DNA of 42,704 bases from Nemertoderma westbladi (taxonomy: Eukaryota; Animalia; Xenacoelomorpha): positions 1 to 42,704 of the forward strand of contig JAUCBJ010005545.1 of NCBI GenBank assembly GCA_032718475.1. The letters run 5' to 3'. This document shows positions 12,231 to 36,013 of this stretch, in pieces. Every line of letters starts with the position of its first letter. Position 1 is the first letter of the stretch. Under the pieces are notes generated by a model. That model made no database searches and was not told the origin of the DNA. It saw only the letters and a program-made list of their open reading frames with translations. Made by a program: the position numbers and the translations under genes.

Positions 12231-12674
12231 ATGTCTTCTGATTCCGATATGGTTATGCCAATAGTAAGGCATTCATTTTTTGCAGAAGATGGTGAAGCCT
12301 ATATTGTTATTGATTATACAATTTACCGTCGAGGAGATGATAAATATAAAATCGATTTTTCTGAAAAAGCCAGGAAAGTTTTAAGCTCAATTGATATTGA
12401 TGCTTCTGAAAATAGCATTCATCTCTTAGATTACAACCTAAAAGTTGATCATGTGGGAAAATTAATCAACATCTTACTATTATCCATGATAGAGGGGTTA
12501 ATTGTTATTACACAATACAACGAAGCTGGTGAAAAGTTTGAAATACGGCTAAATCGGCATAACCCCTACGAAATTATGTCTTTCTTTATTGTAATGATTT
12601 CAAAAGAATCCTTTGTCGAAACTGAAGAATCAACAGATAATGTGGAATTTGTTGAAAATATCATTGATTCTTGA
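12231..12674 (+). CDS. Polinton accessory protein of unknown function (147 aa)
   Basis: Intact ATG-started ORF in AT-rich DNA, first gene after the left TIR; no motif recognised. Confidence 0.6.
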   Translation: MSSDSDMVMPIVRHSFFAEDGEAYIVIDYTIYRRGDDKYKIDFSEKARKVLSSIDIDASENSIHLLDYNLKVDHVGKLINILLLSMIEGLIVITQYNEAGEKFEIRLNRHNPYEIMSFFIVMISKESFVETEESTDNVEFVENIIDS

Positions 12675-12859
12675 CTTTTCCCCCTATATTATAAATATTT
12701 TATGACTATTTTTAAAATTTTGATCTTTTTAATTATGAAAAAAAAATCAAATTTTAAATAATCGAAAATTGTAGTAGTATTTGTATATACAGTATATCGG
12801 ATTTGTTTGTTTGTTGTGTATTGAGGTAATTATTTTCAATTTACTTTAAAATTTGGAAA

Positions 12860-13309
12860 ATGGATATTTTAAACGAAAAATGTCCAGTTTGCTATTCTAA
12901 GTTATTGCAACATCGAGATTATTATAAATGTGAAAATAAACATGCAACTTGTATGCAATGTATTGTACAATATTCCGAAATGAATAATTATTGTTCTAAA
13001 ATTTGTCCTATTTGTCGCGCGCCCATATCTAAGTTAAATATAAAGTTGGCGAGATACAACCCCTATTATTGGAAAGAGCTACGAAATATAACTTATATTT
13101 CCGCGCAAAGTAATGATCCAGGAGATTTATTTACAATATTGGAGAATATTTTTTATAGAAATGTAGTACGACGGTGTTGCTACTATGTTCCTTATTTTTT
13201 TAGCAGCAAACATAAAAAAATCATTAGCGCGAAATTCCCGGGAAGTGATTTCCAAACTGCTGATGTTACCTATCATTATTTCGCGTATAAAGATGCTCAC
13301 CATGCTTGA
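12860..13309 (+). CDS. Polinton RING-finger (C3HC4) protein, putative E3 ligase
   Basis: CPVC-x11-CENKHATCMQC-x14-CPICRAPI. Confidence 0.8.
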   Translation: MDILNEKCPVCYSKLLQHRDYYKCENKHATCMQCIVQYSEMNNYCSKICPICRAPISKLNIKLARYNPYYWKELRNITYISAQSNDPGDLFTILENIFYRNVVRRCCYYVPYFFSSKHKKIISAKFPGSDFQTADVTYHYFAYKDAHHA

Positions 13310-13526
13310 AATTACATTGAAAATGAGTCTATACTATAATTGGAAATAGCACCTTTTGTTGCAGCGAGCGTCACATACTGTAGTTGTGTCATATGTTAAT
13401 TAAATATACAGCACTCTAATACTGTAGTTGCATCAATTATTGTTATATACATAGTAATGGTGATGGTTTATTGATATTTATATTATATTATATTGTATTT
13501 TTGATATATCTTAATAATAATAATAA

Positions 13527-14211
13527 ATGGCTGACTTTAATTCAGGTCCATATAATTTAAACTTTCAAATGGGAACGAGTATGATAATTTCTGGCCCATC
13601 TGGTTCCGGAAAGTCTACATTTGTTGGCAATTTAATTAAACACAAGAATGGTTGTTTCAACGAACCCCCCTTGCGAGTATTGTATTGTTACGGGAGCAAT
13701 CCCCCGACTATTCCCGGTATTACTCACCTTTACAAAGGTTTGCCTGAAAATATAGATAGTTTAGTGAATAGTCGAGATTTATTAATTATAGATGATTTAT
13801 TAACAGAAACTGAGTCCAGTACAGCTTTAACTGTATTGTTTACTAAGGTAGCTCATCATTCCAATATATTTATTTGTTTTATAATGCAAAACATGTTTTA
13901 CGGTGGGAAGCATAACCGCACAAGATCAATTAATAGCCATACCTTAGTATTAATGAAAAATCCGCGAGACAGTTTATCGGTTTTAAATTTCGCGAAGCAG
14001 ATGTTACCAGGGCAGACCAAATTTTTAGTAGATTTCCTATCAAGATGCGACTATTGAACCATTTTCACATTTCTTAATTGATTTACGACAGGAAACACCC
14101 GAACATTTAAGATTTAGATCGGTTATATTTCGTAATCATAATTGTTACATCAAAAATTACATTGACTATAAACGTAGCGAAAATAATAATAATAATAATA
14201 ATAATAATTAA
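13527..14211 (+). pseudogene. FtsK/A32-like genome-packaging ATPase (frameshifted)
   Basis: Walker A GPSGSGKST, Walker B LLIIDD, HH.N...QN and KNPRD motifs. After a frameshift near 14033 the typical C-terminus YQDATIEPFSHFLIDLRQETPEHLRFRS continues to a TAA at 14209-14211. Confidence 0.92.
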
Positions 14212-14244
14212 TATTTTGTAACAATTTTCAATAATGTTGCAACA

Positions 14245-14628
14245 ATGAATAGACTTGTGCAGAAATATCGTAACGAATTGGAATTTCTACGCAGCGCTAC
14301 CGCTCAACAAAGAACTTATTTTATTAACCATACCGCGAGTAACGAATTAATACGGCTCCTTGTAAATACCGCATTAAATGTTCTAAAAGGTAACGTACAA
14401 TTGACCCTTCATTCATTTAGAAATATTCGTCGTTATAAAAAGGTATTAAAATCACTCAACCGCAAAACAAAAAATATATCAAGTTACAGAAAAAAGTTAA
14501 CCAATCAATCTGGAGGCATACTACCGTTTCTAATACCCTTACTCGGCATTGGTGCGAAACTCGCCGCGAGTGCTGGCGCCGCCGCTGCTGGAGCGGCTAT
14601 TGCGAAAAAAATTAACCGCGGACGGTAA
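14245..14628 (+). CDS. Conserved basic Polinton virion protein with an adenovirus pX-like C-terminal motif
   Basis: NVLKGNVQL, a Lys/Arg-rich middle, then QSGG|ILPFLIPLLG, resembling adenovirus pX MRGG|ILPLLIPLI. Confidence 0.75.
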   Translation: MNRLVQKYRNELEFLRSATAQQRTYFINHTASNELIRLLVNTALNVLKGNVQLTLHSFRNIRRYKKVLKSLNRKTKNISSYRKKLTNQSGGILPFLIPLLGIGAKLAASAGAAAAGAAIAKKINRGR

Positions 14629-14849
14629 TAATGGTTAAAACGGGAGTAACATTTAGAAAATTATATTTAGTATTGAGTAAACCGTTAGCTACTGATTTAA
14701 AACCTCAAGATATACCTAGAGTAAATACTACAAAAAGAAAACCCTTTAAAACATCAACTTCAAAGAAAATAAAATAATTTCAGCTGTTTTTACGGTGATG
14801 CCCTTTATAAGAGATTTGAATATACATATTACTTGCGGTTGTCGAAAAG

Positions 14850-15922
14850 ATGCCACGCAAGATGAGACCGATTTTATCCTGAAGCTTAGACAAAAAACTG
14901 TTAAGAATTTATTTAGATCCTTCATCGCCTGCGGGTTTTGCAAGTATCGCAAAATTAGCAAAAGCCGCAAACATCAAACCAGCTCAAGCCCAGAAATGGT
15001 TGAGCGGGCAAAAGACATACTCCCTTCACGCACCACGTAGACATCATTATCCAACATCTAAAATATTCACGGGAGGGTTAAAAGATATATATATGATAGA
15101 TCTGGTGGATATGCAGTAATATAAATCACAAAATAATAATTATAACTATATATTAACATGTATTGATGCCTTTAGCCGGCTTGCTTTTGCCTATGGTATG
15201 AAGACAAAAACAGGTATTGAAATTATTAGTATATTGCAAAAAATATTCCAGAAGGGTAAACCAAACAGAATCGCGACTGATCAAGGTTCCGAGTTTCTAA
15301 ATAAATCTGTAAGGAAATATTTAGATACTATTGGTGTACAGTATTACGTAATGTACTCTGTGAATAAGGCGGCTATTGTCGAGAGATTCAATAGAAAATT
15401 AAAAACAAAGATGTTCAAAATTTTCACGCAACGGAGAAATAATGTTTGGATAAAAATTTTACTGAAGCTTATCTTTGCTTATAATAGGTCATTTCATAGG
15501 ACTATACAAATGACGCCCATTGAAGTTAATAAGTTTAATGAAACTGAAGTAATTAATCTGTCTAGATTAATCACAATAAAATAAAATTTAAAGTTGGAGA
15601 TACAGTACGATTATCTATCGCGCGTACTGCTTTTGCTAAAGGCTATCGAGAACAATGGACACGTGAATTATTTATTATTCATCGGGTCAGATTGGATAGA
15701 GTACCAGCGGTAATGTTCGATATTAAGGACAGAACCGGTGCTATAATAAATGGTTCATTTTATTCATACGAACTCCAAAAGGTCCACCCGAGTAGTAATA
15801 TTTATCTTCCGATTGACAAAAATATTGGCAAACTTAAAGAATGTGTACGCAATGGGAAAAAAGAATATTTAGTCCGATTCATTGGATCCAAGAAACAGTC
15901 GTGGGTACAGCATATTCAATAA
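14850..15922 (+). pseudogene. Retroviral-like (rve) integrase with a C-terminal chromo-like domain
   Basis: YLDPSSPAGF, IDLVDM, CIDAFSR, TDQGSEF and VERFNRKLK (DDE); then FKVGDTVR..F.KGY...WT.E and KEYLVRFIG...SWV. In-frame stops at 14880 and 15117 and a frameshift near 15555-15585. Confidence 0.92.
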
Positions 15923-16184
15923 GTTTAGGTTTATACTGTATATTAATTCATTTTGGTCACATATGACCGTAATTAATCAATATTAACTCGAATGATATTA
16001 CTATACTATACTGTAAGTCTAATATCTATAGTTCATTCGCTTTAAATAAAGCCAGTAAAATATTGATCCCTCGCATATACTGTAGAAGCGGCAATGAACG
16101 TGGTCACAGATGTCTATAGTTTAACATTATACAGTACAGTATGTACAAAGGAGTCAAGTAGAGAGAGCTTAAATAATAATAATA

Positions 16185-17767
16185 ATGGCTGTAGATACAT
16201 ATATCACTCTAGTTTCAGATAGCTCATTAAACACATACCCCAATAATAACTCTAGCGAGTTTACTGTTGATTTAGCCGAAGAATTATATATTGGTCCAAA
16301 TTCTAAAATTGGGCTTGCTGAGATTGAATACCAAGCAACATACAGTAATATTACTCTGCAAACTCAAATCTCGCTGTCAATCGGGGTAGATGCAAAAGAT
16401 GCCAAATTATACAGTTTATTTCCTAGTATGCATAGCTCTATTCAAGTCATTATTGATGATATAAATAAACTGTTTCATTCTGAAGCGAAATATAGAGATT
16501 TCGAATTCATTTTTAATACAAATAATTCTAGAATTAAATTTAAATTTCCTAAAAAGTTGAAAAAAATACAATTAAGTCTACGCGGTGATTTAATATAAAT
16601 TCTAGGCTTAAAACAGTTATTGGATCAGAATCATCCAGGTATTCCGAATTGGGATATACAGTACAGGCCACCAGAAAAAGCAGATTTCATCCAATGTGAT
16701 CACATGTGAACACATTTGTTCAAGTCATCTGATTGGCAGGTTATGGCTAGATATCTTCTAGATCACACAGCAGGAGGCTAACTTGCTGGGACCGACAAAG
16801 GCTTTGTATGCGGTGCACCTGTATGTCTGATATCAGGTAGATGAGAGAGCCCCCAGGGCGTAACATTGAGGACATGGGCTGTATTGGTAGAGAGATAACT
16901 ACATACAAGACCACATGGAGGTTCATGGAGTGTATGTGAGTGGCTGGGTATGTGGATGGAGGAGCCTAGACCATTAAATAATTAATTTAGTGCAGGGTGA
17001 TGTCGCGCCATTAGTCTGACACCGAGAGGGCACAGAGAAACACCAGAAGATGCCTTAACAGCACTAACTATAGGCCTGCCTACTAGAGACTATTAACCGC
17101 ATACTATAAAGGTAAACAAAATCCTTATCGCATTTCCATCTGCAGTAAGTGACAGTTCGCGGCAAACTACAGAGAGTTTCCAGATTACTAAGCGTTTCAA
17201 AAGTATTCAATTGTATCCTTTGGCGAAAAAATTTTGGTTGTTGCCAATTCAATTATGTTCAATTATGTTCAATTGTCCCGTTCAACAACATTACATTACA
17301 CTGGTACACATTTGATAAAATGTGTTCACAATTGTATAAATCTGCGTTTTCTGGTAGCCTGTACTGTATGCAGTACCACTACAGTGGATGAATTAAGCAA
17401 TATAGAACAGCCGATATTAATTTTAAATTATAGTGGACCAAAAATTTCGGAAATTGGGATTTTAGATTTTCCAAATCCCACGAATATTACTCGTAATAAA
17501 GATACAATCTTCATATATACAGATATTATTGAGAGCTCTTTTGTTGGTGACGCTTTAGCTCCGCTCTTAAGAACCTGTCCTTTAACACAATTAAATCGAA
17601 AATATATTAATCACAAATACGAGAGCATTTGCTATTACTCATTATTGAATAAAAAACTAAAAACAATCTTAATTACTTTACGTGACGGCCAAGGTGAATT
17701 AATTAATTTCAACGGTGGTCGCACTGTTATAACACTTAAGTTAATACGCGGTGGTGGTGATGGATGA
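16185..17767 (+). pseudogene. Minor capsid protein (penton/PX) copy 1, disrupted by a nonsense codon and a MITE
   Basis: N-terminus YITLVSDSSLNTYPNNNSSEFTVDL...IGLAEIEY and C-terminus IYTDIIESSFVGDALAPLLR...ITLRDGQGELINF...ITLKL. TAA at 16596. Removing 16659-17368 rejoins the halves in frame (NWDI|CSTTTVDE). Confidence 0.88.
16659..17366. mobile_element. Tc1/mariner-type MITE (708 bp) inserted in penton copy 1
   Basis: TIRs CAGTACAGGCCACCAGAAAAAGCAGATTT and AAATCTGCGTTTTCTGGTAGCCTGTACTG; TA TSD at 16657-16658 and 17367-17368. Confidence 0.9.
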
Positions 17768-18605
17768 ATTCTATGTTAGGCTACCAAGTAACTCCTGTCC
17801 AATTGATTTTCCCCGTAATACCGGTAGTAATTATCAGATCAATTTCCATGGTGCCTTACCTATAAATCCAAACGAAAACTGGGTGGTAGGTATAAAAAGT
17901 ATATTTTACTTAGCCACGTTACCGTCCATGTATAACAATGTAGAGAATGTTATTTTATTAAAAAAAGGGAAAAAAAAATTTGAGGATACACTTCCATCCG
18001 GCTTGTTCTACAGTATCAATGACATTATAGATTATTTTAACACTGGGGCGTTGAAAGATAAATTACAAATAGTTGAAAATACTCAGCAAAATAGGTTGCA
18101 ATTTATTTTAGGGAAAACTGTACGAGAGTTATTTATAGGTCAACAATTAGCCTATTATTTTGGAATTACTGAAAATAATCTCGGTGCGAATTTAAATCTA
18201 AATTTTAAAATTATTTTGAAGACGAAAAATAATATAAAGGGTTATTTAATAAAGATTATTGGAAATGAAGAAAAAGCTTACCAGATGGTATTTTTATGTC
18301 CTCAACCACCCAATTCTATTCCAGAACCTAAGTCGAACATGTACGTGACTACTAATATAATTGAAAATGAATATATTAATGATTTTGGTTTAGCTTTACT
18401 TCGTCGCGTGGCGATACCTGATGACATGAAATATGGTAGTGTAATAAATAAAGAATTTGCCAAGGATACAATTCATTATATTCCTATAAAAAAATCATAT
18501 AAGATAACATACATTCATATTGAAATAACAGACAAAGAAGGAAAAGATTTGAATTTTGAATACGGCACAACTTCTATTACCTTACACTTTAAAAAAATAA
18601 ATTAA
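17760..18605 (+). CDS. Minor capsid protein (penton/PX) copy 2, intact
   Basis: MDEFYVRLPSNSCPIDFPRNTGSNY...WVVGIKSIFY; MYVTTNIIE...LLRRV; HYIPI...IHIEITDKEGKDLNFEYGTTSITLHFKK. The ATG overlaps the end of copy 1. Confidence 0.88.
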   Translation: MDEFYVRLPSNSCPIDFPRNTGSNYQINFHGALPINPNENWVVGIKSIFYLATLPSMYNNVENVILLKKGKKKFEDTLPSGLFYSINDIIDYFNTGALKDKLQIVENTQQNRLQFILGKTVRELFIGQQLAYYFGITENNLGANLNLNFKIILKTKNNIKGYLIKIIGNEEKAYQMVFLCPQPPNSIPEPKSNMYVTTNIIENEYINDFGLALLRRVAIPDDMKYGSVINKEFAKDTIHYIPIKKSYKITYIHIEITDKEGKDLNFEYGTTSITLHFKKIN

Positions 18606-18606
18606 A

Positions 18607-19167
18607 ATGGATTCCAATTTATTTCAAAGATACAGTAAACCTCAATATGGTGGTGCAGACTCTAATCTTGCTGTTTTTAAAGGTGGTAGAAGTACGAGAG
18701 GCTCGACGCAAGTTCCTGTTTTTCGAGGTGGTTCATATATTGACCCTTACGGTCAACAATTGGTGCATTTGGTCCAAACTTAAAACAACGTCGATTTCAA
18801 CGTTATCGTAGAGGTATGCGGACAAATCAACACGGGGAAGGTATATTTACAGACGCTTTATCTACATTGAAAAAATTTGGAAAGCCATTAGCAAAAAAAG
18901 TTTTACAAAAAGCTTTACCATTTACCACAAAATTTATGAGAACACGTAATACCAAAAGGTAAGCGGGTCTTACATCAGCAGGCTAATACGGTTATTAATA
19001 AAGCATTAAACAAAATGAAACCATCAACAAGATCGGTCGTAGAAAATGTTTATAGAGATTTAAAGCGACCGACTAGACCAATGTCTATGAACATACATCA
19101 TCGTCATAGTAAAAATAGAAAAATAAAAGGCAAACTGAAACACTGCGAAAAAGGTATCTTTTTATAA
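18607..19167 (+). pseudogene. Basic core/membrane-lytic virion protein with GG protease sites (two frameshifts; absent from the ORF track)
   Basis: Manual translation: MDSNLFQRYSKPQYGGADSNLAVFKGGRSTRGSTQVPVFRGG / QRRFQRYRRGMRTNQHGEGIFTDALSTLKKFGKPLAKKVLQKAL / basic tail ending KGIFL*. Lies between penton and MCP. Confidence 0.7.
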
Positions 19168-20426
19168 TGTCAATTATTAAGGAATTAGATTTATTTTCTA
19201 CACAGCCAATATAGACTGAATTTAAAGCAAAGCATTATGAAACAATTTACCCGGTATCTAATCTCAGAAGTGAATCTAGGGAAGTCACGTTTCTTGTACC
19301 AAGATCCAATGAATTCTATACGAAACTGCAAGATGCGTTATTAATTATAAAATGTACTGTACGGTGGGATAGACGACTTGAAAACTCCCATATTTATATG
19401 TTGAATTACCCTTTTGGAACTATGTGGAGTGATATTAAAATAGACCTTAATGAGAAGCAGGTTGAAAATAGCAATAACCATTATTTCTACAAGTCGTACT
19501 TATCCAATTTACTATTTACAACATACGAATCTAAAAATGGGCTACTGGGGGCAGGCGGCTTTTGTCAGCCTTTATCCGAACACGGAAATGAAATTAATCC
19601 CGGCGCGCATCCTATTGGCGATGCCTTTAGTAAACAAATGCAATTTGTAAGCGGATTGACGATTGATTTTGATACTGAAAGTAAAATAATACAACCCGGG
19701 TATGATTTAAGAATACATTTTAGAAAAGTATCAAATTCGTTTATTTTTAAAATCACTCCAAACGCAAATGCTGTGACAAATCTTCGGCTAGAATTAGATG
19801 AAGTAAAGATCCTAATCCTTAGAATGGAGGTTAATCCAGTAATAGAAAGCAGCCATCTAAAAGGTTTAGAGAGCTACGATATTGAATATCAATTTAAAAA
19901 AAAAGAGGTTACTACATTTACTATTCCCGCTCAAACCACAAATTACACCCAAACAAACATATTTGATGGTAAAAAACCCAAATTAGTTATTATCGGTTTT
20001 ATAACAAATAATTCATATTCGGGAGAATTAACTAGTAATCCGTTGAAATTTGAACATTTTAACCTTAGACGCGCGGAACTGATTGTAGACGGTCTTCCAG
20101 TAGGTGGTGTAATATACGAGCCTAATTTTACAGATGGAACATACATTTTTGAGTATACTCAATTAATGAAGAACATTAGTACATATATTAACGGTTATGG
20201 AGGTAATAATATAGACCATGAAACCTACTTAGGTAATTGCCCACTCATATCCTGGGACCTAACTGCCGACGGCTATGTTAGAGATCCACAGCCATCGATA
20301 TATACTAACGGACAATTAAAATTAAGATTTGCCGAACTGTTGGTTGAGACCATAAATGTAATCGTTTTTAATATTTATGATCAATCATTAAGTTTAAATA
20401 GCAGGAAAGAAATACATATCGATTAA
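19167..20426 (+). pseudogene. Double jelly-roll major capsid protein (PY/hexon) with one premature stop
   Basis: The ATG at 19167 gives MSIIKELDLFSTQPI*TEF (TAG at 19212), in frame with ORF 19398-20426. Typical motifs: NHYFYKSYL..LL, F.G.KP....IGF..N..Y.G....NP..F.HF, WDLTAD, LKLRFA..L. Confidence 0.9.
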
Positions 20427-20428
20427 GT

Positions 20429-20892
20429 ATGTTATCTACAGTGGACCTTGATATGTTTCCAGTGGGTGGTCACTATTTGGGGGCATTTCCATCTAATAAA
20501 TTACCTAAATTAGATAATAATAATAATAAGCGAAGAGACTATGGGTTAATAGTAAATACCGATAAAGCGCATCTGCCAGGTGTTGATTGGGTGGCTATAT
20601 ATATACGAGATAATGAAGCTGAATTATTTAATTCGTTTGGTCCAAAATATCCAAACAGATGTATTGACATGTAAAATGGCTTGAGAAAAATTCAGCAAGG
20701 TGGTGTACTACTCGCAAGCAATTTCAAAACCCTAGAAGGACCATATGCGGGTTATACTGTCTTCATTACTTGGTAAATCGAATTCACACAAACTATCCAA
20801 TGAGAGCGTTTACAAATAATGTGGAAATAAATGAAATAATATTATATAAATGGCTTGTTAATTATTATAAAATAAACCAACAAACGTTGTAA
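20429..20892 (+). pseudogene. Adenain-like cysteine maturation protease (inactivated)
   Basis: YLGAFPSNKLP, IVNTD...PGVDWVAI (expected catalytic H replaced by D), FNSFG; after a frameshift near 20670, QFQNPRRTICGLYC continues to a TAA at 20890-20892. Confidence 0.88.
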
Positions 20893-20923
20893 TTAATCAT
20901 TTAACTTTTGTTTATCAGATAAA

Positions 20924-21525
20924 ATGGATATAATATTATTTTTGTTGATTTTCAATATTATACGATAGACAATAAGGAATATCCGGTAGTATTTAAAGAA
21001 TTTGCTATATTCGATTCTAATTACACCAAAACTAATGTAAAGACGTTTTTAATTAAAGGACCTCCTGATATTAAGTTATCAGCATTAGATAAAGCCCACG
21101 TAAACAATTTACGGGACATGACTTCACATTTACCCTGGGATTATGGTGACATTTCGCAAAATGACTTTAAAAAGTACATGAAGAGACATTTAAAATATAA
21201 AAAAAATATATATGTATTCGGGTTGATGAAGCTGGCAATATTAATTTCCAAACTTGATGTACTTGCTCCAAAATCGATGGAGAAATTGGGAATATATCAA
21301 CGGTATTACAACTATTTAACCCCTTGCCCCTTCCACGATCAATTTACTACACTAGAAAATAAATGCGCTTACCACTTAAACAGAAAGGATAACTGTCTGT
21401 GGTACTGCTCCGCAAAACGTGTCGGAGGGTATGAATTGAAACGATTATTCGTGAGAAAGCGATTAACTGAGACTGATGATAAACAGAAAGAAATAACTGC
21501 GGTGGAAGATGTACTCGTACAGTAG
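20924..21525 (+). pseudogene. DEDD/Maelstrom-like nuclease-fold protein with a putative ECHC Zn site
   Basis: The frame of ORF 21118-21525 is open upstream to ~20923 (IIIFVDFQ...FKEFAI...FLIKGP...HLPWDYGDI) and later has CPFH-x9-CA. The ATG at 20924 is out of frame by one extra TA in a (TA)n run. Confidence 0.55.
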
Positions 21526-22450
21526 GTTTACTCTAAGCATGTAATATGATGGGATAATATAATTGTTTTAATGTCAATAAAAATAATAAAAACATTAAAA
21601 TCTGTTTTTTATATCTTAGTTTGACTAAAGGTGGGGGGTTTAGGTTTACACTCTCAAACACACCACAACTACCGGTAGCCGACTGTTGTATCTGAGTTTA
21701 ACTACCAGTAGCTGACTTTACACATACAGACATATAACAGCAGCAGAATGGCTCCCCTTCAGTCCTTCTAGACTGACAGCACCCACAGCGCTTTAGCGTT
21801 ACTTACTAGTAATAAAATTAAATTAACTCGACATGTGGTTCGTGAATGCGGCATTAGAGTGGCCCCCCTAACAATAGGCCTACTGGTACCGGCACTGTAG
21901 CACTCTTGTAACTGTATACTTGGATACCGGTAGGGCAAGGGCACGCTGGTTTCTCCGATTTAAGGATTAGGCTATTACACTTGAATGCTTCCAATTTTAT
22001 GTTTACAACTTTAATTGGTCTAATCTACATTATTATTATTACTGCGGGGTACTGGTACTACTGTTGCATAGGTAAGCCTATACAGCTATAGTTAACTTTA
22101 TGCGGCCCCCCTTTTTCGAATGTTGACCCAATATGGTTTACGGTTAACCTTTAGAACTCGCGGATAGGCACACCTTCATTCGGTCAGGCATATAGGCCTA
22201 ATGACTACTCCTCAACTGAAAGCCGGCTAGCTCATTGATACAATAGGTGTGGCTAGCAATATATAAAATTCACCGCTCACAAGTTCATTCATTCACTCCA
22301 TGTTGTAGGCCTATATAAAACATAGTTAGTTTATTTATGTATTCGCTTTTTAATTAGATATAAAATATACAATACAAAAAACCTACTGATACTGGTAACA
22401 CATTAACACTGAACCAAACAGACGTGACTAATTATATACGAGTCTACTTG

Positions 22451-22834
22451 CTACTGGTGTATTCTTGGATCTGTCGGAAGTAGTAGAGTCGGAGCAGGAG
22501 CTACTGATATTTCTTCTTGTTCTTCCCAGTGCTCACCCCTACTATAATTATCCAGACTTATCTGGTGAGCTTCTCCTGGTTGGACCCGAACGTTTAAATT
22601 AAAGTTTTTATTTGTTGACAATGTAGTTTGTCGACCTTCGCCACTCGTTTTATTCTTAACCATTATACTAATCTCACCATTGTTATTTTTCAAATGTAAT
22701 TCCATTACATTTAATGATGTAAAAAAGAGTTCTTCCCCATCGAGATCAAATTTTAATAGACAGTCGCTATCTCTATTTCCAATAAATGAAAACGCTATGT
22801 TGGATGTTGGTTGATTGCTTGAATGATGAATCAC
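22451..22834 (-). CDS. Polinton orphan ORF (5' end uncertain)
   Basis: 127-codon open frame with a non-ATG start next to a homopolymer run; minus-strand AATAAA downstream at ~22331; no motif recognised. Confidence 0.45.
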   Translation of the reverse strand: MIHHSSNQPTSNIAFSFIGNRDSDCLLKFDLDGEELFFTSLNVMELHLKNNNGEISIMVKNKTSGEGRQTTLSTNKNFNLNVRVQPGEAHQISLDNYSRGEHWEEQEEISVAPAPTLLLPTDPRIHQ

Positions 22835-23547
22835 CGCGACTGAAGTTTGGAGGTTAGTTTTTTTTTTTGAGCAAGTACAAATATAAGTAGGTCTATACTG
22901 GTATTTTATTTTTTTTTATTTACGGTAACAAAATTATACTTAAGATAGAAAAAATTGAGTTTATATATATTTTTGTAGTGGGTCGCAGATGTTTACATTA
23001 CAAAATTCACATAGTTAACAAAATGCAGAACATAAACCTTTCCCATGCGGATTAGCGATATATGCTCTGTTCATTGTTCTATTCTGAATGTAGGGAAATG
23101 CATAGCTGATGTTTTAATAATATGTACTGGTATACAGGCTAGTAACAGATAGGAGGGCTTCGACTTTGACTATGAATACCAGTACATAGCCCTAAACTTT
23201 TCTCACCGAGCTTAGCGTTGCCTGCTGCACACACACACTCGCACACACTCACTCTCATAAGTAACAGATGCGCTACTGTAGCTCACTCGTGAGCTGCGAT
23301 GCTTAGCTAGCTAGCTAGCTACTGTCTCTGGGTATACTATGCATACTTGGGAGTTACAAGCAATCGCTCTACCGAAGTTAGTTAGTTAGTTAGTTAATTT
23401 CCCCAACTAGTTGTTGATTTAAAAAATATTCATAAATTTCGTCTCCCTCCAATTTAATATATATATATATATATCGGTATATATTTTACAGTAAAAAATC
23501 TCCACCACTAAACAACAACAATAAATTTAACTCTCTCTAATTATATT

Positions 23548-24117
23548 TTACATCAAAAACCCACCACCAAACAATAATAAATTATTAACCAGTTTGTTGA
23601 ATATAGGATAATATATATGAAATTTAAACGGAGAACACATTAATGTACATTTACCAGTGTAGAAGCAGCAAACAACAACAATATTATTTATTCTGACTTT
23701 ATAGTTATTGAATATTTCGGGGTCGTATGAAATTTCTAGTTTAACATTATCAAATATAACATAAAACCCGATATTGTTTATAAGTAACCTATAGATTATG
23801 GTGTCGATACTAAAAATATAAGTACACAAATTGATAGATTTAAAAATCAAATTAATGTTTGTTTTTTCGAATATATGCTTTTTCACTTTATTAAAATTAT
23901 ATTTTCTACCGAGAATTGTTATTCGTCCATTTGTAAACATTAATATGGTTGGACCAAATACCTTATATATAAACTGATTAGGTTTGAGTACAATTTTACC
24001 TGTCAATTGATTTTTTAATTCTTTTAAATTAAGTCCATAAATGATCTGCTTACAACTTATATTTTTATTTACTATTTGATAATTCATCATCAACATCATC
24101 GCCTTTTGGTTCTTCAT
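23548..24117 (-). CDS. Divergent TATA-box-binding-protein (TBP)-like protein
   Basis: Two TBP-type half-repeats: VNKNISC...LNLKEL...P.QFIYK...TILMFTNGRITILG and INLCTYIF...YDPEIFN.YKVR...VCCFYTGKCTLM (compare TBP LIFSSGKMVCTG and YEPELFPGLIYR...LIFVSGKVVLTG). The true start is probably near 24090, overlapping the pPolB end. Confidence 0.7.
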   Translation of the reverse strand: MKNQKAMMLMMNYQIVNKNISCKQIIYGLNLKELKNQLTGKIVLKPNQFIYKVFGPTILMFTNGRITILGRKYNFNKVKKHIFEKTNINLIFKSINLCTYIFSIDTIIYRLLINNIGFYVIFDNVKLEISYDPEIFNNYKVRINNIVVVCCFYTGKCTLMCSPFKFHIYYPIFNKLVNNLLLFGGGFLM

Positions 24118-27100
24118 AAATTGGTATATTTGATATTTTTATAGGTTTTTTGAGGTTTGTTTTATAGTGCCCCCAAGGAAGTGATTGATTTTTATTAACC
24201 CAATAAAGTTTATCATCAAAGCTACTGAGTGCAAATTTATTTTGCTTTAAGGTATAAATACGATGTAATTTAGATTGAAATCTGTGTATGTTTTTTTTAT
24301 TTCTTCATTTGCGTTATATGCTTTTAAATATTCTTCATGTGTAATATTCGTTTCCACAACAGCTCTTGTAATACCTTTTGCTCTACGAATATTTTTGTTA
24401 TTCCATTCCAAAATTGAATATAATTTTGGTCTTAAAAATACAGCTTGTTTAATTTCACGTGAGGCTAGTTCATCTTTACAGTAATAAAGTCCCGATTTAT
24501 TTTTATTACTATAAAGCGGGTGATCCTTAGGGTAATTGGATGTATCTAAAATATTATTTTTAATTAATGCTTTTAAAAAATTATTCTGCGATGTATTATA
24601 GTAACAACCTATTAATGAGTCTGTATCTGATGTAGCAATTTCAATACGGCAGTTTAATTCTTTCTCAATAGGTAGCAATTTATCGTAGTACAGCTCATAC
24701 ATATCCAGTTTAGCCAAATCCAACACTGCGCTACCAATAAATATAGGCTTATCGAGAGTTACAGAGTCTTTCACTAATAAATGTCCCGATAATGTATTAT
24801 TGTATATTATAAATTGTTCATGATTAATACGATTCACCAATTGGTCACATTTATCATTGCTATTTGCGATACGAAAGTTACATCGATCCCGTATCTTTTC
24901 TATTGACTTACCGAATAAAGAGTTATTAAGCAGCTTTGCGACAGCCGTTTCAATGTAACTTTTTCTAGTCGCCTTTGATTAATATTATAATCTATGTAAT
25001 TTTTAAATACAAATTCTTGTTGAAAAGAATATAATTTATGTAGTTTAGTAACAATTAATCCATGTTTTATATAAAATTTTAACAGTTTCAAATATAAATG
25101 ATAAAATTCTTTATCAAATTGCGTCAGCAAGAGTTTTGGTGTAGGCATCTTATATTTACTGGAGGTACCTCTTTGTATCGATAAGTTATTAAATTGTTCC
25201 CTCATATAAGGTGAAAGCATTGATTCATTTATACTTAAATGCTCTGGGGCTAATGGTAATTGTAATGTTTGATCGTGAATAGCTTTGGGGTAATTTAAAT
25301 CACATATTATAAAATATCCAGTAGATCCGTCATTGTCTAAATCTACCAAGTACTCGATTAGTTTTTCTGGAATTGCATTCTCTAAATGTTTAATACTTAC
25401 TTCTTTGAATTGTGAGGTGGGTAGTTTTTTACTTAAATTCCCAGAATATAAAGAGTTGAAATCAATATTAAAAATATGGCATTCTTCCTTAGTAGAATCA
25501 TATGTACTTGTTTCGGGTATATTTGATTCTATATAATGCTTTCGACAAAATGAAACACCACCCCTAATTGATTTTTCAAAATCTCTATATGTCTGATAAT
25601 CCTTTATTAATTCTATTTTACATTTATTATATTTTAGTGCGCAATCATAGGTAAATGACGCAATACTACAGTAAAAAACCACTTCTAAATCGTAATTTTG
25701 TTTACAAACATTCCTAAAATTCTCAAATATATCAGCAAGCAAACAAACATCGAGTTTTAAATAGGCTAAAAGATAATCTTTGAGATTCACACAGTCGAAT
25801 TCTACCCATGATAATCCCGCAAACCTATAATCTTCAATTGTGCATGTTTTTTGACTTAAGTTACTAAAAAAATTATTTATAGATGGTAAACCAGTATCAT
25901 TAAATTTATTTATATCTGTCAAGTACTCGTATGGAAATACTCCTTTCCGATTAATTGTTGAGTTATTCAAGTTTGGATAAAAATATTTCATTTCTTGTAG
26001 AGTAATAGGTAAAATTGAGCTTATATCATGACTCGCTACATCCTTTGTTGAACACTCAACTAAATTACTTAAAGAAAAGCTTAAAAATTGATATGTGTCT
26101 AAGACACGTAACTCAATTTTTTTCGAAGTGTTTTTAATTGGGATAAATGCACTCAGTGAAATATATCGTTCTGTATTTCTCGGTATAACCTTTATATCCC
26201 AATCCGTGTATTTCTTATCTCTAAATCCGGTTTATAATATACAATGTATATCATAATTATTGGAATTGTGCCCGCAAAGTACATACAGGTATCGTTTCAA
26301 TGATAAACTTCGGTTACAACTATTACAGGCTGCCGCAATATATTTACCTGTAATATGTGAATGATGTCTGTTTTTCCCTACATTATTATTTAAAGTAACA
26401 TTACAATAGAAACAAAATTTTGCCTGTTCAAAATTTACAAAATCAATATTAGTAAATAACATAGTTTTATGAGTGTATATTTCTGACCAACAACATAATT
26501 CATTTAAATCAGTATATAATGAATCTAAGAAATCTTGAATACAATTATTATTATTTGACTTTACGAATGTTTTCAAATGACATTTTGGAGGATCAATTAA
26601 TTCACTATTGGGAACAATTAAATAACTCACAGCACACAGTATATGCTCCTGTATAAATTGATTATTAACTGAAGGTTGTAAGATACATTCTATATCAAAG
26701 TAGGTGACAAACAATGGGGATAAGGTTCTATCTAAATTTGTAAAACTAATGTGTGTTCTTTTTTTATTAGGTAGTTTCTCTCGTTGACTTCTTCCTTGGT
26801 AGCAGACGAGACGGTGTCGATGAAGAACTTCCGCTCGAAAAAAATGTCCCAAACACCTTTCACAATATTTCCTATTGTGGATATGAAGAGCTCTCGTATT
26901 CAGCAATCGATTCAAGTTAGTTATGCAAACATAATGATTCAGTTTAGGTACATTGTTATTTTTTACTACAAGTAATATATTTAATAACTCTTTATCAGAT
27001 GTAATTTTACTAAACGGTGGTTGTCTTAATATAGATACGGGGGTGCGTTTGTTGTCGTTATTCCAACATAGTAAATTAATTATATATTTAGAATTTTGTT

Positions 27101-28121
27101 TTTCAAAAAGTTTAATCGCTAACTGCCACTCTGTTGGATAATCATTTTTCCTGTTGTCAAAAATGAAATGACTCATATAATTTTTGTACGACGAAGTATG
27201 GTTTTTGTTGTTTTTCACTTTGCTACCAAATTTTGCGGTTATAATAGCCCATTTGAAACAGTCATTATCAACCGTTTGTATATTTATTGTACATTTTTTA
27301 GCTGATAGAGCCTTAGGTAATTCCATATATCCATGCCCCTTATATAGTAACGACCTACACTTAGATTCAGCTAATTTAATTTCAACCCTTAATAAAGATT
27401 TAACGCGCCACCCTGAGCCACGTGTGTTAAAGATGGCTATTTTTTGTAATATATTTTCCACCACATACTCAAACCATGTGTCAAAACTTTGTGATGAATC
27501 TACAGTATTAATAGTACCACCGGAAGAATTAAAATAAAAGGTTTCCAATTGCTCGCCTTCTGAAAAATGTGATCTGTACATTAATACATTTAGACCTCAC
27601 CACAGTCTAAGAACATTCATTTCTTTCAATCTATCTAATATTAACTGAAGAATATTACCTCGAATTTGCGTTAATGCTGTTTCTACATCGGGATAATCTC
27701 TAGAAGTTGGGAGGTCGTGGACATAAATTTCAAGACGATTATCGTGAGCTTCTTGTTCCCGCGTAAAAATTGTTGCGCATGTACCAAGAGCCACCCTTAA
27801 GTTTTTTCTAGATAATATATTTTTATGTTGCGGAGATTTACGCTTTCTTGTGTAATAACATTTCAAGTGACAGTCGTGTCTTAAATAATTCTCATATGTA
27901 TACTCTTTATTACAGGTAGAACAAGTCAATTGATAGGTACGGAACTCCATTTCTTTACAACCTGTAGTTGATTCATGTCGTTTATAAATTTCGCTGCATG
28001 AAGTCACAACATGACACTTAAAACAAGAATAACCTTCAAAATGTGACCGTAGGTGGCGTAAATAATTATGTCTAGTTACATTCATATGACAGAATGAACA
28101 ACATATTGTTATTTTATCCAT
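24065..28121 (-). pseudogene. Protein-primed family B DNA polymerase (pPolB) with N-terminal Zn fingers, OTU-like region and endonuclease VII-like insert
   Basis: Exo I YFDIE, Exo II HNSNNYD, Exo III YLKLDV, RKGVFPYEY, IRGG, motif A DFNSLY, motif B KLLNNSLFGK (shifted frame), motif C DTDS, and C-terminus KFALSSFDDK...PWGHY. In-frame stops at 27597 and 26232; frameshifts near 24965 and 24295. Confidence 0.95.
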
Positions 28122-28319
28122 GTTAAAGTTTGTTTAGATTAATAATAATAATAATAATAAAATATCACCAAAGATTAAAATAAAATGAAATGAAATGAAA
28201 TGTTTTTGACTATATCTAAACATTTATATGCTAGCGAGTGAAATAATTTTAAATCAATCACCAATCACCAATCGCTTATGGGTGTTGGAAACCTCAAAGA
28301 GTTTAACTTATGATCAGGT

Positions 28320-29384
28320 TTACATGTTAGAATAATAATCTGGTTTCCATGGAGAATTAGTAACTGGATCTACTGGAACTAGGTTACCGGCAACTTTCTG
28401 TTTCTTTGCAGGTGATGCGTTGGTAAATTTACTTGATGATCTTGGCTTCTGAGGTAATATTTCAGGAAAGACCTGTTGCGGTTGAGGGCAACTCTCTTCA
28501 ACATCCGGATTAGGTGATGGGATCTCTACGAATGCTTTAGGTTTATCCAAAAGGACAAAACCATCTACATTGGCTTCAGTAAGAGAAACACCATCCATAG
28601 CCTCTTTGAGAAAACTAATATGGGTTTTATCCTTCAAGTAATGCAACTCAATAGAATTTCCACCTGCTCCTACTTCAGTAGAATTATCGGTGTTGGTGAT
28701 AATAATTTTTTTATTATTGGTTTTAATCATTTTGAGACGGTCTGATAATTGAATGATATTTTTATCAAAAAGATGCTTGTCTGTTTCATCGATTTGGGTG
28801 TCCCACTCTCGCAACAAAACGGTTAGTTCCTGATTTGACAAATTGAAACCCATATAATAGTTAAAACCAACACTATCACCGTATCTGAGGCTGATTTTCC
28901 ATAAGCCAACATAGTTGGTTCCTTTAAAAGCTGTTACAAATCCAATAAACTCTGGATTTGATAATTCAATGTAGAATTGATCGCTAATAATCTCTAGCGG
29001 TGGAGAGAGAAATTGCAATAATTTCCCTCTGTATTGAATTAGAACTTCAGTAAAAGCTTTGTTGAGAACTTTACATTTGCCTTGTTTCTGAACGTAAACA
29101 TCACCCGACGTGGGGTTGATAGAAATATTCAAGTTTCCTCGCGCAAAACGAAGAGCAGCATATATCCTACCTGGTATAATTGCTGGTCTGGATTGATGTT
29201 GGTTGTTGTTGGTTGTTTCTAGAATGTCTAGCAAATAGCGGGTATCTTGATGGGAAAAACAAATTGATTCGTTGTCCTCCTGAGATTCCACAATAAAATA
29301 CTTGATGTGAACGACGGTACAAGTATATTTATTGTAAGTAAATTTCCAGCTATTTGTTGCTCCAGTTTTTTGCGTTAAGGCCAT
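28320..29384 (-). CDS. Putative PC4-like ssDNA-binding/coactivator-fold protein (354 aa, intact)
   Basis: FVTAFKGTNYVGLWK...GFNLSNQELTVL resembles the PC4 pattern VSVRDFKGKVLIDIREY...GISLNPEQWSQL. Weaker second and third copies are possible (ICFSHQD, GVSLTEAN). NLS-like PAKKQK near the C-terminus. Confidence 0.5.
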   Translation of the reverse strand: MALTQKTGATNSWKFTYNKYTCTVVHIKYFIVESQEDNESICFSHQDTRYLLDILETTNNNQHQSRPAIIPGRIYAALRFARGNLNISINPTSGDVYVQKQGKCKVLNKAFTEVLIQYRGKLLQFLSPPLEIISDQFYIELSNPEFIGFVTAFKGTNYVGLWKISLRYGDSVGFNYYMGFNLSNQELTVLLREWDTQIDETDKHLFDKNIIQLSDRLKMIKTNNKKIIITNTDNSTEVGAGGNSIELHYLKDKTHISFLKEAMDGVSLTEANVDGFVLLDKPKAFVEIPSPNPDVEESCPQPQQVFPEILPQKPRSSSKFTNASPAKKQKVAGNLVPVDPVTNSPWKPDYYSNM

Positions 29385-29743
29385 AATAATAATAAATACG
29401 AAAAATATTACAAGTGATAAATTTTAAACCGTATCGCTGTAATAAATTGACACCCATAATAATAACTTTTCAATATAAGAGAGAATCAATAGTAAAAATT
29501 CTGCCATATATTGAAAAGTTATTATTAGGAAAAGGTTAAAAGGAATCAATTTATTACCATGATGATTACAAGTGATGAATTTTAATAAAAACATTCAGTT
29601 ATATATAATTTCTGAATATGTGATGTGGCATAATCAACGTTGAAGAAATGGGATGTGGCATAATCAACGATGAATAAGAAAAGAGATGGGATGCAATGTG
29701 GATGAATGGTTGGTTGGTTGCGTGGATAGGAAATACATGATCG

Positions 29744-30540
29744 AATATGAATCATTGGGTTGTGCGTAATAATAATCAATAATTATAATAAAAACGCGCA
29801 GTATAATGTTAGTAGGCTTTCAATATGCCGCAGATGCTGAGGGTTAGGTTAGGTTGAGTAACTATGGAAATGTGAGAACGTATACGTGACGCGTGGCGAA
29901 ATTTCATGTATCATACTGGTTGGTTGGTTGGTTGGTTTGGTGACAGCAGCCGAGTAGCTCTAGCGGTGGGTAAATCATTGAGTTGGCAATCGATATAATA
30001 TAATAGCGCGGCGTGGCGTGGTATATGCGTGGTGTGCGTAGATGGCCACATCGTCCATGACTGGCTCTATCATCGTTGTCATCATATACAGTATGTGGTA
30101 GCAAGGCGAAAAGGGGAGTAACCGGAGGGCTAGGCAAGCAAGCATCGCTGTTGGTTTGGTTGGTTGGTTGGTTGGTTGGTTGGTTGGTAGGTAACAGCAG
30201 TCGAGTAGCGATGGGTTGGGTATGTGGGGGCTAGCCATGCATCGTGAGGTTAGGCTACGCGAAGATGAATATCAATGATTGGTTGATGCAACGACGCGAA
30301 TCAATACTGACAGGTGGTAACAGCAGTCGAGTAAGGCGGGCATCGCTAGGTTAGGCTACGCGTAGGTGAATATTGATGATTGGTTGATGGCAACGACGCG
30401 AATCAATACTGATGGTGGCAGATGGTCATTAAACACCGTAATTTAGCACCGGAATTTGGCATTTTGAATAGTCCTCCGAGATATCTCCCATAGCCCAAGC
30501 TAGGGAGGACTATGGTGAGGAACCCTCTTCCTCTACTACT
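29744..30540 (-). repeat. Polinton right terminal inverted repeat (has ~205 bp missing from the left TIR)
   Basis: Reverse complement of 11449-12050 with an extra segment at ~30015-30222. Confidence 0.95.
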
Positions 30541-31049
30541 CTTGTCTGATCTGATCTGACGGCATCTGATCCTATAACCAATCAGGAGAAAGAGATATAA
30601 TATTTACCTAACTGTCTGTTAGGTAATTAGCCAATAGGGGATCGAATCAGGTTACCCTGTTACGTATCAGCATCATCATACTGTATGACGGCAGTACAGT
30701 TAGACAGTACAGGCATACCGGTATGCAGCCAAAGCAGCAAGGCATGTTATTATGTATTCAAAATGCGATATAGGGTGAAGGATGGCATGAAAGTTGTGTG
30801 ATTGCCCCAGCAAAGATGGATACTGTAGTTTCAGATGTAAACAACTTTCGTAGTTTAGTGAAACATTAAACATTTATTAAAAACAATATGGGTACAGCCT
30901 TTGTTGCAATATTTTACTAATATTCTTTCTTGTTAATAGTTATCATTATTAATAGTTAAAGTTAATTATTTTAATTATAATTAATATTATTAAATAATGA
31001 TACTTATTAGTATATTACATTTAAAATATTTATTGTTTGTTTGTTACGC

Positions 31050-33412: not shown

Positions 33413-36013
33413 ATGACGCAGATTGTGTTGAGCTTACCAATCACGGGCGAACCTGAATCGTTATCTCTAGGTCTACCGATGACGCATTTAGAAGAAAGTC
33501 CGTCTCGCTCACCGAGTCTATCGATGAATCATGTTGAAGAAAGTGAGTCACTAACTCCAATTCTACCGATCAATGGCGTTGAAGAAAGTCTGTCTTCAAG
33601 CCCAATTATATCACACAATGATGTGGAAAAAAGTGAGTCGACATCCCCAATTCCACCGATCAATGATTTAGATGAAAGTGGGTCACCAATCCCGATTGTA
33701 TCGTTGACTCATGTGGAATATAAGGGCAACATTATCACCAAAGAAATGATAAATGAAGAGTCTAACTTAGCTATTGAATCCGAGAAATCTGCAACAAAAT
33801 TACGGCAGGAATCGTATGAGCGATGGGCGGAAATTGAGAAGGAATCAAAGTATAAGCGCCTAAATAATCTACTTAAGAAGAGTAGTGTGTATGCTAATTT
33901 CCTTATCAACCGCATTGAGAAACAACGCGATGAAAAACAGAAACAGGAACTGCAAAAGGCAAAGAGAAAGATGCAAACTGCAGCTCAACCTAAGGTAGTT
34001 GAGGCGACACGGAGGTCTACACGTTCCGATAATGTTGTTGTCAATCAGGAAAATAAGTCAGCACAGTTAGGGAAAGGTAAGGCGGTGAGTATATCTAGTA
34101 GAAAACGTAAACGAGAGATAGAAGTCGACTTAGATACATATATAAATCGCGATCAGTTATCCAACGTGAGTCAGGAGCCTGTGGACGGCGAGTCAGGATT
34201 GGAGGACCAGGATAGTAAACCGCCCCTCTCGCAGTCGGGCTTGTTTACTGGGGGTACGTTGCGGGACTACCAGCTGATCGGAGTCGACTGGATGCTGAGC
34301 CTATACGAGAATGGGATGAACGGGATTCTAGCGGACGAGATGGGGCTGGGTAAAACGATACAGGTGATCGAGACGATTTGTCGGCTGGAGGAGGGCGACG
34401 GGCCTGGCGGTCGTGGCAACTGCTACCTAATAGTGGCTCCATTATCTACACTGAGTAATTGGGTGTGCGAGTTCGAGCGTTTCGCCCCTTCCATCAGCAC
34501 CTTGCTGTACCACGGTGATGGAGAATACCGCAAGTCAATACAACGTAAGATTAGACGTGAAGCCACTGTTATTATCACGTCATATGAGATCGTAATTCGC
34601 GATCAGAAGGCCCTTGAATGTTACCTGTGGCGATACATTGTGGTTGACGAAGCGCAGCGGATAAAGAACATGAATTGTTCGCTCATCCGAGGCTTAAAGA
34701 GTCTCCGCTCATTGCATCGGTTGCTGCTGACCGGGACTCCGTTGCAGAACAACCTCGCCGAGCTGTGGTCTCTACTCAACTTCCTACTCCCGGATGTGTT
34801 TGACAATCTCGATACTTTCGAGTCCTGGTTCACTTTCGATATGATGATGAACGCGAATGAGGCTGAGTCTATAGTTGCGGAGGAACAGAAGACCAACGTT
34901 CTGTCGATGTTGCATCGCATCCTGACACCGTTTATGCTGCGACGCATAAAAGCCGACGTTTCGTTAGACCTCCCGCCCAAGGAGGAACGCACCGTATTGG
35001 TCCCGTTGACTCCATTACAACGACGATTCTATGAGGCGACGGTTAATAAAACTATAGAGAAACTCACTGGACGCGTCAAGGAAGAAGATATTATTGAGCC
35101 GCAGGCCAAGCGGAAGTCGTTCAATAGAGCACTGGAGGTCAACAGGCTGATCACCAACATAGATAATGTGACTACAGAGAAAGCCGCTGAGGCAATGGTA
35201 TCTCGTTTATCTGATTATATTGATAAGTGTTTGGATAGTAAGAGACCTCCTAAGGACGACATCGATAAGTTCGAGACCAATGTTAACATGAGGAACGCCA
35301 TGATGCAGTTGAGGAAGATCTGCAGTCATCCCTATCTTATTCAATATCCTTTGGATAATTTGGGTAACTATAAAATCGACGACAACATTATAGAAACAAG
35401 CGGTAAAGTTAAATTCCTGGAACGAATTCTCCCGGAATTAAAGTCCCGGGGCCATAAAGTTCTTCTTTTTAGTCAAATGACGAAGGTTTTGGACATTATA
35501 GAGGATTATTGCATCTTCAAAAAGATTATCTACCAACGGTTAGACGGGAGAATGAGCATTACAAGTCGTCAGGAAGCCATCAACGATTTCAACCAATCAG
35601 AAGGTGTCTTCCTATTCCTTATCAGCACTCGAGCAGGGGGTCTAGGAATCAATCTCGCCTCCGCGGACACCGTTATACTATACGACAGCGACTGGAATCC
35701 GCAATGCGATCTGCAGGCTCAAGATCGATGCCATCGGATCGGGCAGACGAAGCCGGTAGTGGTGTATCGGTTGGTTGTGGCCAACAGCATCGATCAGCGG
35801 ATGGTGGAGCGAGCCACGGCTAAGCGACGTCTAGAGAAACTCGTTATAAAGAACGGTCTGTTTAAGGGGACCGAGGATGATCTGATTGGAAAGAAGCTGA
35901 ATCTCGACGAACTTCTTGCGATGTTGAAGAGCGATGATAGCGTTAATACTTGGGATGGTGATAAAGATATACCCGATGACGAACTCTTCAAGTTACTCTG
36001 TAGGGATTTCTAG
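33413..36013 (+). CDS. HELLS: Lymphoid-specific helicase (HELLS/LSH/DDM1), SNF2 family, single exon
   Basis: KRLNNLLKKSSVYANFL, FTGGTLRDYQ, GILADEMGLGKT, LLLTGTPLQNNLAELWSLL, LHRILTPFMLRRIKADV.L.LPPK.E, STRAGGLGINL, QAQDRCHRIGQTKPVVVYRL and LEKLVIKNGLFKG. Confidence 0.92.
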   Translation: MTQIVLSLPITGEPESLSLGLPMTHLEESPSRSPSLSMNHVEESESLTPILPINGVEESLSSSPIISHNDVEKSESTSPIPPINDLDESGSPIPIVSLTHVEYKGNIITKEMINEESNLAIESEKSATKLRQESYERWAEIEKESKYKRLNNLLKKSSVYANFLINRIEKQRDEKQKQELQKAKRKMQTAAQPKVVEATRRSTRSDNVVVNQENKSAQLGKGKAVSISSRKRKREIEVDLDTYINRDQLSNVSQEPVDGESGLEDQDSKPPLSQSGLFTGGTLRDYQLIGVDWMLSLYENGMNGILADEMGLGKTIQVIETICRLEEGDGPGGRGNCYLIVAPLSTLSNWVCEFERFAPSISTLLYHGDGEYRKSIQRKIRREATVIITSYEIVIRDQKALECYLWRYIVVDEAQRIKNMNCSLIRGLKSLRSLHRLLLTGTPLQNNLAELWSLLNFLLPDVFDNLDTFESWFTFDMMMNANEAESIVAEEQKTNVLSMLHRILTPFMLRRIKADVSLDLPPKEERTVLVPLTPLQRRFYEATVNKTIEKLTGRVKEEDIIEPQAKRKSFNRALEVNRLITNIDNVTTEKAAEAMVSRLSDYIDKCLDSKRPPKDDIDKFETNVNMRNAMMQLRKICSHPYLIQYPLDNLGNYKIDDNIIETSGKVKFLERILPELKSRGHKVLLFSQMTKVLDIIEDYCIFKKIIYQRLDGRMSITSRQEAINDFNQSEGVFLFLISTRAGGLGINLASADTVILYDSDWNPQCDLQAQDRCHRIGQTKPVVVYRLVVANSIDQRMVERATAKRRLEKLVIKNGLFKGTEDDLIGKKLNLDELLAMLKSDDSVNTWDGDKDIPDDELFKLLCRDF

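Follow-up and report, generated by a model that had tools for sequence, protein, structure and literature searches.

A Polinton in the genome of the xenacoelomorph Nemertoderma westbladi carries an open reading frame (ORF) that, judged from its sequence, encodes a highly diverged two-lobed homologue of TATA-binding protein (TBP). The window, by which we mean the whole 42,704-nt stretch of contig JAUCBJ010005545.1 that was analysed, contains an element of 19,092 bp at 11449-30540, which starts with AGT and finishes with ACT. Its features are as follows.

11443-11448: left copy of the 6-bp target-site duplication, identical to the right copy
11449-12082, plus strand: left terminal inverted repeat (TIR), starting with AGT
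12231-12674, 22451-22915 and 28320-29384 (-): orphan ORFs
12860-13309, plus strand: RING-finger ORF (Pfam zf-RING_2, E 0.001)
13527-14211, plus strand: packaging ATPase (A32/IVa2-like) with a P-loop (Pfam Pox_A32, E 0.0011, below the curated cut-off); frame change at ~14.04 kb
14245-14628, plus strand: Protein X-like core protein (Pfam Adeno_PX, E 0.014, weak)
14883-15922, plus strand: broken retroviral-type integrase (Pfam rve, 44 bits, E 2.8e-11); stop at ~15117, frame change at ~15.57 kb
16185-18605, plus strand: two putative minor capsid (penton-like) genes, from position; the first broken, with an interruption at ~16.6-17.25 kb
19167-20426, plus strand: putative major capsid protein, from position and length; early stop at ~19213
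20429-20892, plus strand: putative adenain-like maturation protease; frame change at ~20.67 kb
23548-24117, minus strand: TBP-like ORF, pI 9.7; 189 aa when read from the first ATG, 180 aa from codon 10
24065-28121, minus strand: putative protein-primed family B DNA polymerase (pPolB) in five pieces, with family B motifs in the translation
24137-24166, minus strand: two TATAAAA boxes within pPolB coding sequence, 49 and 26 nt upstream of the first ATG of the TBP-like ORF; as a candidate promoter of that ORF they do not exceed chance
29707-30540, minus strand: right TIR, with ~200 extra bases (30022-30223) between two matching arms
30541-30546: right copy of the 6-bp target-site duplication, identical to the left copy

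Polintons (Mavericks) are defined by TIRs that begin with AG and by a 6-bp target-site duplication, and both hallmarks are present here. The outer TIR arms (11449-11765 and 30224-30540) match at 98% over 317 nt, and a second pair (11762-12082 and 29707-30021) matches at 86% over ~320 nt; a preliminary description of this DNA had spoken of a 19-kb virus and of TIRs. The ~200 nt at 30022-30223 are found in the right repeat only, and the terminal repeats also hold internal direct repeats of 73-76 nt. Inside the right end, just upstream of the orphan ORF 28320-29384, lies a 71-nt imperfect palindrome (29457-29527, 82%) that is a candidate hairpin or binding site. The element is flanked by host genes for a sorting nexin (PXA-RGS-PX, 7299-10268), which carries a Gly-rich tandem insert, and a HELLS-like SNF2 helicase (33413-36013); both are single uninterrupted ORFs (989 and 866 aa) and apparently intronless. 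Named best matches of the helicase are animal HELLS proteins at 43-53% identity (best 120 of 6459 matches). Elsewhere in the window are a broken non-LTR retrotransposon reverse transcriptase (RVT_1, 450-1784), a 1-kb MITE-like element with long imperfect inverted arms (5922-6930, 77% over 351 nt) and, towards the window end, an array of a 24-nt unit (37572-42704) with at least 202 copies in register that are mostly 98-100% identical.

Genes on the plus strand of the Polinton run in the order orphan, RING, ATPase, pX-like, integrase, minor capsid, core, major capsid, protease and exonuclease-like, and those on the minus strand are an orphan, the five-piece PolB, the TBP-like ORF and one further orphan. 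The plus-strand genes from the minor capsid onwards are putative, being assigned only by their position and by motifs known for these families. The capsid and protease candidates, which stand in the usual Polinton order, have no profile match, and the major capsid candidate also has no PDB match. Stops or frame changes interrupt most core genes of this Polinton copy. In the putative pPolB, stops lie at ~27597 and 26232, and the frame changes at ~24.9-25.0 and ~24.25-24.3 kb; the pieces are presumably family B, from motifs visible in the translation, and profile and sequence searches returned no PF03175 or other Pfam, PDB, phage or plasmid match. One unnamed metagenome relative (31% identity) lies on a 1.6-kb contig that is too short to hold neighbour genes. 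The interruption in the first putative minor capsid gene consists of ~650 nt of GC-richer DNA (16600-17370) spanned by a 70-nt inverted pair (16656-16725 and 17300-17369, 79-82%), possibly a small inserted element. The orphan at 28320-29384 (-), upstream of pPolB, is open over 354 aa with a Pro/Ser/Lys-rich tail that ends in a basic PAKKQK motif, a possible nuclear localisation signal, and has no Pfam, NCBIfam, PHROG or Atlas match. An open frame of 200 codons at 20923-21525 (+) has an N-terminal acidic motif that we take to resemble a DEDD exonuclease, with no usable profile match.

The TBP-like ORF comprises 189 codons without a stop between the Polinton TIRs, and its first ATG overlaps the C-terminal pPolB frame (24065-24304, minus strand) by 53 nt. 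The preliminary description had placed an intact ORF of this kind at the 3' end of pPolB and had pointed to F-x-x-G-type motifs and YDPEIF in its translation. All of these are present: ILMFTNGRITILG at residues 58-70, YDPEIF at 131-136 and VCCFYTGKCTLM at 149-160. The start is ambiguous, with ATGs at codons 1, 7, 8, 10 and 11, and codon 8 differs in other listed copies. The product is basic (24 K+R vs 7 D+E). Among 100 shuffles of the element, the maximum ORF length was 144 codons. Nevertheless, openness is weak evidence of selection because this Polinton copy is decayed: at a break rate counted by hand as roughly 10-14 breaks in ~12.8 kb of other coding sequence, a 570-nt frame would stay open by chance with P 0.53-0.64.

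Assignment to TBP, proposed in the preliminary description, is borne out by several searches. Pfam PF00352 scores the ORF at 23.3 bits (23.4 in a second run), marginally over its cut-off of 22.9, and matches the 180-aa form in two stretches; the NCBIfam TBP model matches residues 18-158 at E 0.009, with a score that falls far short of its cut-off of 255. HHalign against an alignment of 34 TBPs (A1) gives 93.5% and E 2.2e-7 over 151 columns (residues 7-166), which covers both lobes. Alignment A1 consists of 32 of 74 motif-bearing ORFs from a genome scan and two giant-virus TBPs, all fetched by motif, and its profile was built without the present protein. That profile scores the ORF at 18.6 bits and the reversed sequence at 5.9, and composition-preserving shuffles reach at most 9.1 bits (907 listed of 1000). 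Among 338 six-frame fragments of the window, the ORF alone stands out at E 2.4e-5, with the next best at 1.4. In the ESM Atlas, 29 of 30 matches fall in TBP clusters, with a cosine of 0.94 and ~200 of 256 features in common; the recognition score of 1795 is low, strong evidence starting at 2300.

A rival reading, that the ORF is no TBP and that an AT-rich frame rich in Asn, Ile and Lys resembles one by chance, would fit the lack of sequence relatives. With phmmer, the ORF has no relative among 1.84 billion representatives at E 0.001; in a 5.8-billion set, none of 127 candidates matches at E 0.01 and none of 715 longer candidates at E 10; and no TBP in the PDB is matched. Viral contigs likewise gave no match with the ORF, a second TBP alignment (A2), a gapped C-lobe pattern, the capsid, the integrase or the pPolB as query. 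The Pfam score is also only 0.4 bits above its cut-off. Against this reading stand the distance between the ORF and its composition-preserving shuffles, the matching of both lobes in order and the concurring language-model search, and we consider such a coincidence very improbable. The preliminary description had also called the two halves pseudo-symmetric. A single-lobe TBP profile does match the ORF twice and in order (13.2 and 4.4 bits), but when the halves are aligned to each other, 521 of 2000 shuffles score as high, so the two-fold repeat is visible through the TBP profile only. Compared with 35 TBPs, the ORF is 17-26% identical; identity of this order to TBPs of archaea and of giant viruses gives no pointer to the donor.

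Predicted structures, suggested earlier as a check through AlphaFold and Foldseek, bear on the homology in part. A single-sequence AlphaFold model is uninformative (pLDDT 33), and the best fold-search Z of 2.9 is noise. Guided by a TBP alignment, the model improves to pLDDT 69 and pTM 0.56 with the strand and helix order of TBP present, but saddle geometry is reproduced at best poorly (TM 0.36-0.44 and rmsd 6.3-10 Å against TBP). Foldseek returns 44 matches at E 0.001 or better for the guided model, and all those listed are TBP; VIA-align places TBP first with Z 9.2 and rmsd 6.8-7.3 Å over 165 residues, followed by another fold with Z 8.1 over 85 residues. Viral structures among the matches include NCLDV TBPs and BcRF1. 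Because the guided model is biased by its TBP alignment, this agreement is partly circular.

Residue anatomy was read from alignment A2, with numbering taken from a viral TBP on giant-virus-like contig L125 that aligns gap-free to yeast TBP 66-237 and human TBP 163-336, and with the DNA-contact list of Table 1 in PMC12529657. The four intercalating phenylalanines of TBP (F99, F116, F190 and F207) are kept as F49, F61, F136 and F152 in the ORF. Among neighbouring positions, L114 corresponds to L59, L189 to I135 and L205 to C150, and V122 and V213 are both replaced by Thr (T67 and T158). Both base-contacting threonines are lost (yeast T124 is L69 and T215 is M160), as is the C-lobe proline (P191 is N137). 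For the central Asn pair (yeast N69/N159), candidates lie nearby (N17 or N19, and N96), in an ambiguous register in which MAFFT places T99 in the second column. The changes at Val and Thr positions are symmetric in both lobes, which suggests that the DNA-reading surface has been rewritten rather than decayed. TATA specificity may be gone, given the lost equivalents of T124, T215 and P191 and the ambiguous Asn register; with neither Thr nor the C-lobe Pro in place, a looser or shifted box preference would be expected. Human TBP contacts TFIIB through E284 and E286 (PMC7221094), and these correspond to D132 and E134 in the ORF, where both acids survive.

The TBPs on giant-virus-like contigs L124 (9841-10401) and L125 (5517-6071) are themselves very close to eukaryotic TBP (E ~1e-65 for L125 against human and yeast TBP), unlike the usual divergent viral TBPs, and represent either recent capture or host contamination.

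Related copies are plentiful, and the Polinton is a large, diverse multi-copy family. Five of seven listed sequencing runs, from four studies under two organism labels, contain part of 21000-29500. Over 22900-24900, run X1 alone has 1850 contigs, divided among identity bands of 99+, 95-99, 90-95 and <90% as 591, 603, 495 and 161, and 536, 39 and 50 contigs occur in runs X3, X4 and X5 (the last shallow and perhaps of RNA); contig depths in these runs are not copy numbers. The ORF region is present in many related copies, which bears on the conservation asked for in the preliminary description, and divergent pieces are gap-free inside the ORF, with 40 differences over 227 nt, 21 over 208 and 15 over 144, whereas comparable flank pieces have 4-33 gap letters and one piece over the ORF start has 15 (32 pieces listed of ~2,480). 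Among 12 listed of 31 length differences, none falls in the ORF body and four fall in its last five codons. Nine ORF substitutions occur among 40 listed of 211 differences: two in the PolB overlap, three silent and four residue-changing. These are too few to show purifying selection, and some changes may be private to this decayed copy.

A TBP gene that was captured once and now decays without a role would be compatible with this uninformative silent/replacement count and with the break rate of the copy, at which an open frame of this length is expected about half the time. Yet the key Phe and acidic positions persist at such low identity to other TBPs, which neutral decay would not yield, and divergent copies lack gaps in the ORF body; we therefore regard a mere passenger as quite improbable.

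Profile scans detected no TFIIB and no RNA polymerase family among the scanned ORFs and fragments of the element, which agrees with the earlier statement that it has no RNA polymerase. Upstream of 15 gene starts (several assumed, two off by one base), no promoter word is enriched, and the best common words have P 0.06-0.41. TATAWAW occurs in 5 of 15 upstream windows against a null mean of 3.4 (P 0.23), and canonical TATAAA lies ahead of five genes (pX, core, exonuclease-like, PolB and the TBP-like ORF, the last with two boxes), which at 5 of 15 is within chance in an AT-rich element (P 0.21). The word TACTGTA was rejected as element-specific, with 23 occurrences in 17.7 kb inside the element against 20 in 18.4 kb outside. 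Little space is left for a promoter before each virion gene, as these genes adjoin one another. With no promoter motif enriched upstream of the 15 starts, the redirection of host Pol II that the preliminary description proposed by analogy remains an inference.

About even chances attach to our preferred reading, that the ORF is the element's own promoter factor, which would recruit host TFIIB and thereby Pol II; every step of the mechanism beyond homology is one that we infer. The TBP-like protein would be made with or just after PolB, with its expression probably tied to that of pPolB. Its four Phe would let it bind AT-rich element promoters in the minor groove and kink them, and D132 and E134 would be presented to host TFIIB, which would lead to recruitment of RNA polymerase II. 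Host Pol II would then transcribe element genes independently of the host TBP supply, and the protein may switch on virion genes after replication. A more specific version is less probable: a bare Polinton TBP may by itself form a third type of viral transcription switch, which would take a place in the pre-initiation complex of the host, retain the host's TFIIB and direct Pol II to new targets by way of a symmetrically rewritten DNA-reading surface.

Two other roles would accept the homology and assign it a different use. The protein could be a decoy or repressor that sits on TATA boxes, or titrates host TFIIB or TBP regulators, with no productive initiation, and so damps defence genes of the host or early promoters of the element itself. 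Retention of the TFIIB acids and of basic character while the base-reading Thr and the Pro are lost would suit such a role, as would the failure to find a dedicated promoter box; all four intercalating Phe are kept, however, for which a protein that only sequesters others would have no use, and the characterised viral TBP described in PMC12529657, KSHV ORF24, activates late genes. We consider a decoy unlikely. Somewhat less likely still is an architectural role in DNA bending outside Pol II, at the AT-rich terminal repeats or origin in protein-primed replication, in integration or in packaging, or with Brf1/Brf2 for Pol III. Overlap of the gene with the pPolB end in the replication arm is consistent with it, and PMC7221094 describes TBP lobes as general double-stranded nucleic-acid-binding modules and the TFIIB paralogues Brf1 and Brf2 as users of the same acidic loop. 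Replication offers no evident use for a conserved acidic stirrup, though, and no binding site was identified in the terminal repeats.

Compared with cellular TBP (PF00352; human core 1cdw, yeast 1ytb, archaeal 1mp9), the ORF shares two lobes in one chain of ~180 aa, the four intercalating Phe and, in the C-lobe, a Y-[DE]-P-E-x-F loop that carries the two acids contacting TFIIB. It differs in its identity of 17-26%, in the loss of both base-reading Thr and the C-lobe Pro, in a shorter first-lobe loop and helix 2, in ~9 extra second-lobe residues and in its residence in a mobile viral element. Viral TBPs are known in NCLDVs (PMC7221094) and herpesviruses (PMC12529657). NCLDV TBPs (Ravarani et al. 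2020, PMC7221094) are likewise divergent and retain nucleic-acid-binding positions; most viral TBPs in that account vary at the TFIIB-contact acids (the first is ~40% conserved) and are almost invariably accompanied by a viral TFIIB, whereas the 19-kb element has no TFIIB match and keeps both acids. The analogy with herpesvirus TBP mimics drawn in the preliminary description holds to a degree. According to PMC12529657, beta- and gammaherpesvirus vTBPs are TBP mimics of nuclear viruses that use host Pol II, with the four Phe conserved. KSHV ORF24, a 752-aa protein, departs from the present ORF: the acids for TFIIB contact are missing, an N-terminal domain of its own binds Pol II, it also has an ORF34-binding domain, and a clash with TFIIB is predicted (PMC12529657). 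Relative to the herpesvirus vTBPs (ORF24, BcRF1 and UL87), the present ORF is a bare 189-aa core with no extra domain and with the acids kept.

Novelty of a TBP in such elements, which the preliminary description implied, was overstated. The Fig. 5 legend of Starrett et al. 2021 (PMC8502044) already labels a TBP gene in MELD viruses with an adintovirus-like PolB; there too, the TBP-like gene belongs to a midsize element of linear dsDNA whose PolB is of Polinton type. That gene is a legend entry in a non-animal dataset section, without analysis in the passages found (PMC8502044), whereas the present ORF, likened to it by label alone, sits in an integrated element with a target-site duplication in an animal genome. 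In the part of the supplement of Starrett et al. 2021 that was available, TBP has no match. As described in PMC8502044, Polintons/Mavericks and Beta-class adintoviruses share with the present element TIRs, a target duplication, an rve integrase, a packaging ATPase, a pX-like gene and a divergent PolB, putative here, without a PF03175 match; TBP is not among the genes given for animal adintoviruses in its text. No analysis of a Polinton TBP was found in a literature search that covered few subscription journals, and in the searchable part of PMC12220804 the term TATA occurs only in an author name. From its sequence features, then, the ORF is a real viral TBP, of a kind already labelled in Polinton-like viruses.

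To our knowledge, hardly any work has addressed how animal Polintons control transcription. In a 19-kb element in which no polymerase gene was found, a TBP encoded by the element itself is one small gene amenable to expression and assay, and it would extend the carriage of a basal transcription factor to smaller viral genomes. Its residue pattern predicts dependence on host TFIIB together with altered DNA reading, which differs from both described viral TBP strategies, that of NCLDVs, which bring their own TFIIB, and that of herpesviruses, in which TFIIB is bypassed by a multi-protein complex. If true, a switch of this third type would be the first handle on how integrated animal Polintons activate their virion genes.
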